Shown here: positions 32,075 to 36,539 of the stretch, piece after piece
Numbering within the stretch: the stretch's first letter is position 1
Layout: every line of letters starts with the position of its first letter
Source of the DNA: Octopus vulgaris
Lineage: Eukaryota
Assembly: GCA_951406725.2 (NCBI GenBank)
Contig: OX597832.1
Location: forward strand, 21,514,001-21,578,000
DNA: 64,000 nt
Direction: 5' to 3'
Program-made: the position numbers and the translations under genes
Notes under the pieces: model-generated
Database searches by the model: none
What the model saw: only the letters and a program-made list of their open reading frames with translations
What the model was told of the DNA's origin: nothing

Positions 32075-32512
32075 CGACGACGACGATGATGATGATGACG
32101 ATGATGATGATGATGATCATAATGATGATGATGATGATGATCATGATGATGATAATGATGGTGGAGGAAGAGGAGGGGAGGAGGAGGAGGGGAGGAGGAG
32201 GAGGAGAAAAGAAGAAGAAGAAGAAGAAGAAAAAGAAGAAGAAGAAGAAGAAGAAGAAGAAGAAGAAGAAGAAGAAGAAAAAGAAGAAGAAGAAGGAGGA
32301 GGAGGAGAAGAAGAAGAAGAATGCATGAATAAACAGAAAATGAAAATGAATTTAAGAAGTTTCTGTCAGTATGCTATAGAGAGATTTAAAAACTTGTGTT
32401 TATGTCTGGCTGTCAATCGATCTGTCCATCGTTCTGTCTAGAGATGGAAACGATGATTTCCCTTCGCAAATACTGATCGAACACGGACAGTGTGTCGTTA
32501 GCTAGCTGGAGG

Positions 32513-32927
32513 GGACCTTTTCGGTTTGAACGGCAGTTTTTAATATAATTTCTAGGTAACTAAAAAATTTTAAACTTCGTATACTGGTAGAATGTGTTTA
32601 TAAAACATCTTTTTCTCTTGGCTTTATTGAGAAAATTCTATAGTTTGTAAGATATTTGTTGTTTTTTTCATCAATTTCTGCAATTTCAACCAATCAATGA
32701 CGTCCATTGAGGTAAAAAAAACATTCTCTGTTGTATGAATATGCCCCTCGTTTAAGAAACAGATTGGGTTTATTTACATTTGTGAAGAAAAAAGATACCC
32801 TTCCCCCCACCCCTAACCCTAACCCTAAAACATTAAAATGCAATAGATCGATACTAGGGTCATAATTGTGGGTGACAATTTCATATGACACCGGTAGAAA
32901 AAATTGCCGTTCAAACCGAAAAGATCC
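32513..32927. mobile_element. MITE with ~29-bp TIRs and 9-bp TSD (MULE- or Merlin-type)
   Basis: TIR GGA(C/T)CTTTTCGGTTTGAACGGCA(G/A)[17 protein letters not shown] (32504-32512) / AGCCGGAGG (32928-32936). The empty site with a single AGCTGGAGG is present in the paralogous repeat at ~34772. Confidence 0.92.
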
Positions 32928-33602
32928 AGCCGGAGGAGATGTCTTCCTGGGGCTATAAACAACATCAGTAGCATCGTCCCATATGGGTCAGCCACATTTA
33001 GGTGGCAAATATACTTCACGATGTCGGAGCTGCTACTGTTTACATACAGAAATTTATTATTGCTTGCCTCTCCTTTTTCAAGATCAGCGACGGTTTGTCA
33101 CTGGAAAATGCATATATTATTCTGCGTTTGGAATCAGTTCTCATCCCTAGCTGGTGATTGTCAATTTTTCTGTGTTTTTTGAAAGTGAGGCCGACTCGAT
33201 GCGAAGCCGCCATGTTGGGCAGGATGAAGAAAGCAGATGAAGACGTATGCAGAGGCTGCGGGAACGCGGGAAGCTAAGAATACACTCGGACTGAAGCAGG
33301 AATACATAAAATGGGATGTAAAGAAATTGAAGAAGTACAGCAGTATGGTGGACGCTAGAGAAACACTAGAGTAAGACTAGTTATGCTTGAAGAAGAGATG
33401 AAGAAAATTGAGAAGAAAACTGTAATTTTTCGAACTTTTTCGAACGAGAATAGAAGAGTGGAGAGAACTCCAGAGGAGGAAATAGAAAAACTAATCATGA
33501 GCAGCATCGAAGAGAAAATAATCTTCGTCGATAGAGGATAGGAATACGGGACAGTGGCAGCCATATTTGAAAATGAAGAAGATGCAGCGAAAAATTGTAA
33601 AC

Positions 33603-33766
33603 GTGGTAAGTAGCTTGCTCACCAACCACATGGTTCCGAGTTCAGTCCCAGAGCGTGGCACCTTGGGCAAGTGTCTTCTACTATAGCCTCGGGCCGACCA
33701 AAGCCTTGTGAGTGGATGTGGTAGACCGAAACTCAAAGAAGCCCGTCGTATATATGTATATATATA

Positions 33767-33824
<58 letters not shown>

Positions 33825-34036
33825 TGTGTCTGTGTTTGTCCCCTCAACATCGCTTGACAACCGATGCTGGTGTGTATACGTCTCCGTAACTTAGCGGTTC
33901 GGCAAAAAGAGACCGATAGAATAAGTACTAGGCTTACAAAGAATAAGTCCTGGGGTCGATTTAATCGACTAAAGGCGGTGCTTCAGCATGGCCACAGTCA
34001 CATGACTGAAACAAGTAAATGAGTAAAGAGTAAAGA
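33603..34036 (+). mobile_element. CORE-type tRNA SINE (OR2-like), near full length, nested in the 32438-34866 element
   Basis: Box B GAGTTCAGTCCC, core CACCTTGGGCAAGTGTCTTCTACTATAGCCTC, internal (TG)n, CR1-type tail. Confidence 0.9.
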
Positions 34037-34642
34037 GAGAATCGAATTACAATGAAGAGGGAACTAGAAGGAAATGGAAGATGAAGGAAACATCGAGGAA
34101 AACAGAAACATGGGGAAAAACATAACGAGATAGGATGAAAAAACAAGTAAGGATGATAGATTTGTGGAAAAATTACAACGAAAGGGAAAAAAACAGAACA
34201 TGAACATTGTAAATTATGTTAAACAAAAAGAAAATAATTGAAAAAGAACTGATGAATGGACAAGTAATTAAAAGTCGTAAAACAAAGATAAAAAGTTGAA
34301 TTTTCTGTTGTAAAAGGACACATTAAAGGAAAAAAATTAATGGAAAGGTCACAGTTTTGCATTGTAGCGAAACTAGAGGTAGTTTTAAGGTTAATTGTAA
34401 AGTCTAATTGTTAAGTTAATTGTAAAGTTTCATTGTATGTTTAATCGTAAAGTCTAATTGTAAAGTTTATTGTAGAGGTATTCAAGATTTATCTCGCAGC
34501 GGGAGCGAGGTGGCCGTCTCACCTGCATCATATTTACGCTCATTTCATTTATCATTTTTCATCCGCCTTTATGTACCCGCATGTCCGTTGTATGTCCCTT
34601 CTATATATCAGGCCTTGTGCCTATAATAAAGAGATAGCTTGG

Positions 34643-34697
34643 GATTGTCATACGCTGATGACGGATTGCTACTCAGAAACCCGGGTCCGTGTGTATC
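34643..34697 (+). ncRNA. Type I hammerhead ribozyme motif
   Basis: CATACG-CTGATGA-CGGATTGCTACTCA-GAAA-CCCGG-GTC-CGTGTG. 6-bp helix I extended by GAT/ATC past a bulge, palindromic helix III ACCCGGGT, GUC site at 34685-34687. Helix II is imperfect. Confidence 0.7.
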
Positions 34698-35111
34698 ACG
34701 TAAGGCTAGAGATGGAAACGATGGCTTTCCTTCGCAAATACTGATCGGACACACACAGTATGTCGTTAGCTAGCTGGAGGACATGCATTCCTGGGGTTAT
34801 AAACAACATCAGTAGCATCGTCTCTTATGGGTCAGCCACATTTAGGTGGCAAATATACTCAACGATAAATCTACTTTGCTTTTCGATAACTTAATGTAGA
34901 TTAAATAAAAAGAAATTTGGTGCTTGAATTGAATGCTAAGATGGCGCTAAATGATTCTAAATTACTCGGATGTATAATTTGGACGTTTACATAAAATTTC
35001 ACACCCAATAGGTGGCTTATACAGAAACGATAGGCTAATAGACACACGTGGTATGAAAAATCATAAGCTTGAATGATTTAGAAAATACTTCTTAAGTTAT
35101 TTGATGAAATA

Positions 35112-36539
35112 CGAGGGACGTTCAATAAGTAATGTCTCTGACCCACTTGCAGCAGTTTGATCTAGCTGTAATTTTGCATGTGCAACTATTTATATCCCTA
35201 TAGATTAAGTGGCAAATTACAGCTCTGAACTAATTGTGGTTTCTGATTTACATGTGTTTGAACTGAGTCAAGTGTGAAATGGAGCATGTTGAGTGTCGAG
35301 CAGTGATCCGGTTTTTGTATTTCAAAGGACACACAGCACGGAAATCTTTTTATGAAATGAAAGTAACTTATGGCGATGATGCCCGATCATATGACCTTGT
35401 AAAACGCTGGCATCGTGAATTCAAACATGGTCGGAACTCTGTGGAAACAGCTCCCAGATCTGGTCGCCACCCCCTTCCGCCATTGATGAGGCATCTGTCC
35501 GTCAAGTTGAGGCTGCCATTTTGGAAGATCGACGCATAACTATTCGCCAAATAGCCCATCAGGTCAAGATTAGTACCGGGTCTGTGGAAACTATCATTCA
35601 TGACTTTTTGCATATGCAAAAGGTGTCTGCCAGATGGATTCCCAAGTTGCTCACACCTTTCCAGAAGCAAGAATGCGTCGAGTGCTCGAGGATGAATTTC
35701 GAAATTTTTCAAAAGACTGATTACACAGGATGAAAACTGGGTCCATCACTATGATCCAGAGACCAAAGCCCAGTCAATGCAGTGGAAGCACCGTCACTCA
35801 CCTCCTCCAAAGAAGGCAAGGGTGCAGCCCTCTGCTGGTAAGGTCATGCTCACAGTCTTCTGGGACCAGGACGGAGTAGTGTTGACAGAATTCCTGGCAA
35901 AGGGTACCACAATTACAGGAGCCTATTATGCTTCACTTTTAAGGAAATTAAGAGAAGCTATCAAAATCAAGAGGCGGGGCAAGATCAGCAAAGGCATCCT
36001 CCTCCTGCAGGACAACGCTCCGGTCCACAACTCACGTGTCGCCAGATCAGAAGCACAGGCGTGCGGTTATGAACTCCTCCCCCATCAATAGTACAAATTG
36101 GTTATTTTATCTTTGAAATTGGTATTGCCATTAATCAAGCTTAGTTTTTTCCTTTATTAATTACTTTAGATTCTGATAATCATCAATTGATAAATCTAAA
36201 AAACATTTACTCTCACTTAAAGATAATACTACCACCTTAACACCTTCAACTCTCCTGACCTTGCTCCCTCTGATTTTCCCCTCTTCCCATCCATGAAGTT
36301 GTTTTTGAAAGAAAAGCGTTTCCCAGATGATGCAGCCTTGATTTCTAAAGACACGTCGTGGTTGGAGGACCAAGCTGGGATCTTCTACAAAAACGGTCTC
36401 CAGAGCTGCATCAAACGATGGGAGAAATGCGTAACTCTGGATGGTTCCTATGTAGAAAAAGACTAATAACTGTGCCAAATTTCGTTGCTCTACTGCCATG
36501 GGAAGTGGGTCAGGGGCATTACTTATTGAACGCCCCTAG
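35112..36539 (+). mobile_element. Full-length degenerate mariner transposon (irritans/Himar1-like) with TA TSD
   Basis: TIRs CGAGGGACGTTCAATAAGTAATG.C.CTGACCCACTT / AAGTGGGTCAGGGGCATTACTTATTGAACGCCCCTAG flanked by TA. Transposase motifs RAVIRFL, PRSGR, RWIPKLLT, QDENWVHHYDPE, QDNAPVH, SPDLAPSDF, with frameshifts and an insertion at ~36088-36242. Confidence 0.95.

Follow-up and report, generated by a model that had tools for sequence, protein, structure and literature searches.

A Tx1-type LINE derivative nested in a hammerhead-bearing, retrozyme-like repeat of Octopus vulgaris, and the probable re-copying of such composites by a retrozyme route

Introduction

R2 elements insert into rDNA and bear an HDV-like ribozyme of their own at the 5′ end. 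Other target-specific LINEs belong to the Tx1 group, in which Tx1L lies in Tx1D in Xenopus and Tx1-Mar in Mariner-N4 in crocodilians, and which includes Keno, Kibi and Koshi. Some Tx1 families are known to prefer other transposons, the criterion being more than 20% of flanks, and the targets named include DNA transposons, LTR elements, RNA genes and microsatellites (PMC4494074). HAL1 (half-L1) is a non-autonomous element that has ORF1 only (PMC5753468).

Self-cleaving hammerhead motifs are found in two further groups that bear on the present locus. The non-LTR retrozymes of mussels have units of ~350–390 bp with a type I hammerhead, arranged in non-coding tandems (PMC7229834; bioRxiv 10.64898/2026.07.22.740005); LINE cargo is not mentioned for animal retrozymes in the available portions of these two articles. 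Penelope-like elements have a minimal hammerhead with a palindromic helix III, 5′ truncations, partial tandems, inverted 5′ copies and AT-rich targets (PMC4209133, PMC8557442, PMC11167929). The main template of a Penelope element in vitro was unprocessed RNA (PMC11167929).

Here we describe a region of the Octopus vulgaris genome in which a LINE derivative and a hammerhead-bearing repeat are found together. The window, that is, the whole stretch of DNA analysed, comprises 64,000 nucleotides (contig OX597832.1, positions 21,514,001 to 21,578,000). The region proved to be a nested structure of two elements, and not a single element assembled from LINE parts. As in R2, a site-specific LINE lies in a transcribed repeat beside a self-cleaving ribozyme, here a predicted one. 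Unlike that of R2, this ribozyme belongs to the host and lies 3′ of the insert. With the target-specific Tx1 LINEs the octopus elements share a Tx1-related ORF2 with endonuclease and reverse transcriptase (RT), a set position in another repeat, and target duplications. They differ in two respects: the same register relative to the hammerhead is found in host families that diverge by up to 37%, and the host appears to re-copy the LINE. Their target, a ribozyme-bearing retroelement, is unlike those named in the part of PMC4494074 that was available.

Sequence-preferring LINEs would thereby gain a new kind of target, a ribozyme-bearing retroelement that is entered, in diverged hosts, at a nearly constant distance from the catalytic core. 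Intact young endonucleases, together with the natural targets that pair with them, make it possible to study directly how the specificity of AP-type endonucleases changes. It is likely that one parasite, the LINE, both targets and rides another, the retrozyme. In the article library that was searched, no report of Tx1 insertion into hammerhead repeats was found; prior annotation, for instance in Repbase or Dfam, is possible. The words “hammerhead”, “target” and “nested” are absent from the main text, as far as available, of a 2026 octopus repeat annotation (PMC13282606).

Organisation of the region

The features of the region are collected in Table 1. A preliminary description of this DNA had treated it as a single, terminally redundant LINE unit cut out by its own hammerhead. 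Most of the parts that it named were recovered. The terminal redundancy R′/R is real, the two pairs of direct repeats (32438–32512/34706–34780 and 32928–33022/34772–34866) being 91% identical each, with 15 differences in 161 positions when the MITE inside R′ is omitted. R′ begins 19 nt past the position equivalent to the predicted cut, and the Tx1-type terminal hairpin with AATAAAGA was located as described. The ORF1 remnant, placed at 33383–33600, is genuine, and its start had been set too late: the frame opens with the ATG at 33212 and matches that of an intact relative (L039). Three features had been overlooked, namely the 16-bp duplication that flanks the insert, the identity of 33023–33163 as host-repeat sequence that lies directly 5′ of the hammerhead in empty copies, and a high-copy repeat, which we take to be a SINE, at the spot where 686 bp of the element are missing.

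Table 1. Features of the nested region, in window coordinates
Feature	Positions	Strand	Remarks
Host repeat, upstream half (R′, EXT, target site; monomer positions 53–355)	32438..33163	+	Aligned to the natural 358-nt monomer of L225
MITE	32513..32927	.	Terminal inverted repeats; 9-bp target duplication (32504–32512, 32928–32936)
Left target-site duplication, 16 bp	33148..33163	+	14/16 identical to 34635–34650
ORF1-only (HAL1-like) Tx1-type LINE derivative	33164..34634	+	Relatives ~1.74 kb
ORF1 5′ part, broken	33212..33602	+	tblastn to the L039 frame; intact relatives encode a CCHC-knuckle protein
SINE-like high-copy repeat at internal deletion	33603..34029	+	Occurs in many unrelated loci; later insertion
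ORF1 end and AT-rich 3′ UTR	34030..34598	+	25-bp tandem copies at 34383–34477
Terminal stem-loop and AATAAAGA end	34599..34633	+	Predicted folds of 6 tails; shape common to RT-bearing relatives
Right target-site duplication	34635..34650	+	First base 20 nt 5′ of C3
Minimal type I hammerhead motif, helix II decayed	34649..34693	+	Predicted cut after 34687
Host repeat, downstream part	34694..34866	+	3′ end at monomer position 210, where copies of the family repeatedly stop

The upstream host half is 5′-truncated and split by the MITE, and in empty copies the same sequence runs straight into the hammerhead. The MITE is a later, unrelated insertion, with further copies at L003, L043 and L298. The window copy as a whole is decayed: ORF1 is broken, helix II is weakened, and the MITE and the SINE were added later. 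Just downstream of the region, at 35267–36466 (+), there are broken frames that presumably belong to a mariner/Tc1 transposase.

The host repeat

A search of the 2.8-Gb genome with 34480–34900 gave 2931 first-look candidates, the best 40 of which were scored. Among the 30 loci fetched, 11 had the hammerhead and R without a LINE tail, and since 33023–33163 is matched directly upstream in all 11, the hammerhead, R and this segment make up one monomer of ~358 nt. The redundancy R′…R, which had been ascribed to the LINE unit, is also present without any insert in L009, L026 and L030. Nine probe families (A–I) align as one group, and three complete monomers have lengths of 356–363 nt. The predicted folds of natural monomers are stable, with z values of −8.5, −8.8 and −3.5. 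In a young host family, partial tandems reach ~2.7 units, the 5′ ends are variable or inverted, and the 3′ ends lie mostly at position 212 or 267 and are followed by (AT)n.

Tandem non-coding units of this kind fall within the 150–450 bp of retrozymes, and the likeness to the animal retrozymes extends to unit length, predicted folding and the type I hammerhead; the octopus repeat differs in that the arrays seen are short. It fits the animal non-LTR retrozymes, with insertion footprints of the Penelope type. Unlike the Penelope-like elements, it was without an RT and GIY-YIG frame of its own in the loci examined.

A fixed 5′ start of the host at the ribozyme cut site was considered and rejected, for none of 29 copies begins there. 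Seven of the 29 begin at monomer position 50–66, as the window copy does. The insertion site (window 33131–33152) lies within one arm of the long predicted closing stem of the monomer. The other arm (34703–34722) coincides with the start of R, where these seven copies are 5′-truncated.

Penelope pieces near L018, L027, L187, L222, L246, L276 and L278 have no fixed relation to the host repeat, and the one at L018 has a hammerhead-like end of its own. Pieces beside a few host copies were rejected as a host ORF, being nested insertions. A GIY-YIG frame that lies 1.1 kb 5′ of L039 was likewise rejected as the parent of the host; it is a neighbour from a young Penelope family with a different end. 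A very young Penelope family (L089–L118), with at least 150 matches listed at 100% identity over 110 residues, has a hammerhead-like motif of its own close to the 3′ end, is flanked by (AT)n, and is a candidate helper for the retrozymes.

The hammerhead motif

The core described earlier was found in place, with C3 at 34655, GAAA at 34676, a palindromic helix III at 34679–34686 and a GUC ending at 34687. The caution expressed about helix II was justified, as the window copy has an A–C mismatch and its minimum-energy fold pairs CUGA with UCAG. A scan of the region against Rfam gave no hammerhead match at E ≤ 10, and the window motif folded by itself was no better than shuffled sequences (z 0.45 to 1.04), so the ribozyme call rests on its relatives. 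In 66 family motifs, picked by core letters and position, helix I was paired in 94% as against 68% in shuffles and helix II in 80% as against 67%, where the shuffle ignores relatedness and 25 of the 66 were selected with a target pattern that itself contains letters of helix I. Helix III was a perfect palindrome in 44/66, in 10 different sequences. Across families there is strong support for a predicted type I hammerhead with a conserved core and covarying helices.

The ORF1-only insert and its probable autonomous partner

The 5′ part of the insert matches 13 places. Its ORF1 remnant agrees at 40–63% with the intact 393-codon frame of L039, and its relatives have ~1.74 kb between duplications, a single CCHC frame, no ORF2 and a LINE-type 3′ end. 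The Pfam zf-CCHC match in ORF1 (E 0.0028) was below the cut-off; a comparison of ORF1 from the insert group with that of an RT-bearing relative gave a blastp E of 2e-19. Atlas clusters for ORF1 were of the CCHC and ZCCHC3/RRM types at 0.89–0.92, which is a lead only. A protein search revealed a large ORF1-only group of ~1.7–1.8 kb elements with young intact frames of up to 504 codons. Possession of ORF1 only and of a LINE-type 3′ end places the insert among HAL1-like elements; in contrast to HAL1, the group is related to Tx1-type rather than to mammalian L1 elements, prefers a target, and forms ~1.8-kb tandem arrays. Such arrays at L150, L152, L154 and L156 (~1.8-kb period) have intact frames of 450–500 codons, and exemplify an unusually large ORF1-only radiation.

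The ORF2 of a full-length, RT-bearing relative (L209) has Exo_endo_phos, RVT_1 and zf-RVT domains above the Pfam cut-offs, and its best named match is the Xenopus Tx1 ORF2 (30%, E 9e-89). In a quick RT tree with few named rows, the partner grouped at SH-aLRT 92, in an open fork, with the single named Tx1 sequence, itself on a long branch, which is compatible with membership of the Tx1 clade without deciding it. Predicted folds of six tails gave the RT-bearing partners the same stem-loop and AATAAAGA shape as the ORF1-only elements. From the shared tail shape and target, we infer that the ORF1-only insert was probably mobilised in trans by an autonomous LINE. Full-length copies at L032, L033, L034, L038, L042, L159, L161 and L162 start with a few target-like bases that are unlike their own 3′ duplication. 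Such starts suggest that the RNA 5′ end may carry target-derived sequence that helps joining.

Preference for one site in the repeat

Retrozyme flanks were present at 24 of 30 ORF2-selected, RT-bearing loci, counting the query locus and two loci from which probes were drawn, and at 27/30 ORF1-selected loci, where the query and two neighbours within one array are included. Among 30 tail-selected loci there were 11, nine of them direct, one in tandem and one with a cut hammerhead. The searches behind these counts scored the best 40–150 candidates, the ORF2 query was taken from an on-target copy, and composite copying, described below, inflates the on-target figures, so that the counted loci are not independent events. 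Approached from the host side, seven of 29 distinct host-selected copies were occupied, the window included, all at one site, and 14 of 129 exact target words had a LINE tail directly upstream. Control loci selected with Penelope gave 0/30, save for low-complexity or unrelated-repeat matches in six.

On-target duplications measure 13–24 bp and begin, relative to C3, at about −18 to −24 or −25 to −38. A 20-bp duplication marks the full-length RT-bearing L209 at a site of this kind, and L207 has one of 21 bp. Together with the 24/30 count, these two loci accord with the way in which Tx1 preferences are recognised, with more than 20% of flanks in one repeat and duplications present. Fourteen young LINE copies (15 were tried and L314 was skipped) are 1–6% apart, and their hosts are 1–37% apart. 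The five tails nearest to that of the window (11–15%) have flanks 22–33% away, and the nearest flanks (14–18%) have tails 33–52% away. The tail and flank trees of 40 junctions disagree, although the two sets of distances show a weak overall correlation (Mantel r 0.25, 0/2000 permutations). Near-identical LINEs in diverged hosts and disagreeing trees point to independent insertion events. We are highly confident that the locus records a target-preferring Tx1/HAL1-like insertion nested in a retrozyme.

The targeting is loose, for 19/30 tail-selected copies lie elsewhere, 12 of them with ordinary duplications of 10–19 bp (one weak). Guidance by RNA, through a read-through tail cut by the ribozyme, was not supported, as off-target copies carry only 0–7 extra bases.

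Probable copying of composites by the retrozyme route

For 20 ORF1-only loci on target, longer upstream flanks were retrieved. Six are full-length and all of these have the upstream host half; the other 14 are cut inside the element or an array, and none of them adjoins an upstream half, two being ambiguous (L282, L292). All 11 of the LINE-free copies retain 40 nt or more of the upstream half. Among 20 RT-bearing loci the upstream half is present in 12, six are cut or inverted and lack it, and two are unresolved. At L126 and L304 there is an inverted arm made up of LINE tail, target and retrozyme to its 3′ end, next to AT-rich DNA, and the arms are 82–94% alike. At L315 a piece of retrozyme in inverted orientation adjoins the interior of the LINE, and at L016 the LINE 5′ end is inverted and accompanied by upstream sequence of the host. 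The counter-cases L234 and L241, 5′-cut on-target copies that adjoin the upstream half, are plain truncated insertions.

The missing upstream halves in 14 of 14 cut copies, together with the four loci with inverted arms, make it likely that a LINE–retrozyme composite is re-copied through the retrozyme route. LINE-primed insertion from an RNA that ends at AATAAAGA does not readily explain the inverted shapes; retrozyme-primed copying of a read-through RNA does give them. Since the composite copies read through the downstream hammerhead, their template RNA must have escaped cutting there, and an uncut template would be a likeness to the Penelope element described in the available part of PMC11167929. 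The preliminary description had supposed that the unit is reverse-transcribed to more than unit length. This seems to hold for composites of LINE, hammerhead and R, by way of the retrozyme route and with the hammerhead uncut.

Where copies extend from the 3′ end of the retrozyme across the hammerhead and on for kilobases into LINE cargo, they point to a template that was linear and uncut and to priming of the Penelope type, and argue against a monomer circle as template. Composites can therefore serve as natural reporters on how animal retrozymes are mobilised. They are also a warning that repeat libraries will merge LINE and retrozyme. Primary insertion is the simplest reading of the window copy, which has both duplications and both halves of the host and no sibling that matches it in insert as well as flank; it may also be a composite copy.

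A model and its alternatives

We consider it likely that two processes act together, targeting of the retrozyme site in the manner of Tx1 and re-copying of the composites by the Penelope-type route of the retrozyme. The host repeat, to judge from its layout, would spread into (AT)n as partial tandems that are truncated at the 5′ end or inverted and that keep a fixed 3′ end, and would presumably be mobilised by a Penelope enzyme. Tx1-type LINEs and their ORF1-only dependants, with the stem-loop and AATAAAGA end, would insert ~20 or ~25–35 nt upstream of C3, as the observed duplications and site preference indicate, presumably by TPRT; a full-length Tx1-type partner likely supplied the target-preferring endonuclease and RT that placed the ORF1-only insert. 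Because the duplication restores the site, the hammerhead remains intact, and further hits build up tandem arrays. Transcripts through LINE, uncut hammerhead and R would then be primed at the retrozyme 3′ end and copied back into the LINE, where copying would fall off or invert; the footprints were seen in the loci above, and the route is the one that they suggest.

All of the evidence for targeting would fit target-specific Tx1/HAL1 insertion with no second process, the missing halves and inverted arms being due to target deletions, double insertions or rearrangement. With an occupancy near one in four (7/29) double hits are possible, and L234 and L241 are ordinary truncated on-target insertions. 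We nevertheless find this account improbable, because the upstream half was kept in none of the 14 truncated ORF1-only copies and none of the six truncated or inverted RT-bearing ones, and the inverted arms of L126, L304 and L315 resemble inversions of LINE-free retrozymes. Still less credence is due to the absence of any enzymatic targeting, in which LINEs would land at random and a register that spares the ribozyme would then be amplified by the retrozyme. Such amplification probably does occur, in that composites appear to be copied, and most tail-selected copies are off-target; near-identical LINEs nonetheless lie in very different hosts, all seven occupied host copies were hit at one site, and in tandem arrays (L207, L122/L143, L287) the duplication recurs between elements that differ, which makes random landing scarcely credible.

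The chimera of the preliminary description, a lineage of its own with RNA cut by hammerheads at both ends and perhaps circularised, derives support from the adjacency of tail, hammerhead and R, which recurs far above chance, from hammerhead motifs on both sides of the LINE in L135, L160, L168, L308 and L316, and from a group (L125, L126, L145) that is 89–91% alike over insert and flank. It is very unlikely all the same. The insert is flanked by target duplications and its history disagrees with that of the flank; off-target copies, with their few extra bases after the tail, have no ribozyme half; and composites read through a downstream hammerhead at which the RNA was uncut. The outcome that the preliminary description had itself named as a refutation was obtained: the hammerhead with R is an independent high-copy repeat, and in 19 of 30 copies the LINE tail is followed by unrelated flanks. 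Empty copies have the same redundancy, and no host copy of 29 starts at the cut, so the locus did not originate as a LINE unit excised by the hammerhead. A further reading, in which the retrozyme would serve as an R2-like host from which the LINE is transcribed, and two complete hammerheads on either side of a LINE would excise, and may circularise, an RNA that contains it, seems doubtful to us. Were it true, one LINE lineage would be spread by two unrelated reverse transcriptases, with a borrowed ribozyme defining its RNA ends.

Other sites used by the LINE lineage

Close ORF2 relatives, in sister families, use other sites. Young full-length Tx1-type LINEs occur in head-to-tail arrays at L199–L202 (G000:C5:29176000-29215600), L203, L210, L214 and L216, with a 5.28-kb period and intact ORF2 frames of 1148 codons. 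Their targets are not hammerhead repeats, and the lineage has therefore changed its target. Four ORF2 copies (L178, L179, L181 and L186, on G000:C27) have another 3′ flank in common, a repeat that clusters on a single contig. An unrelated 3′ flank is common to two off-target copies from different contigs (L065, L066), and is possibly a second target repeat or a duplication. A contig from another organism (run X19), in which the LINE tail continues into the target sequence, offers no more than one weak hint.
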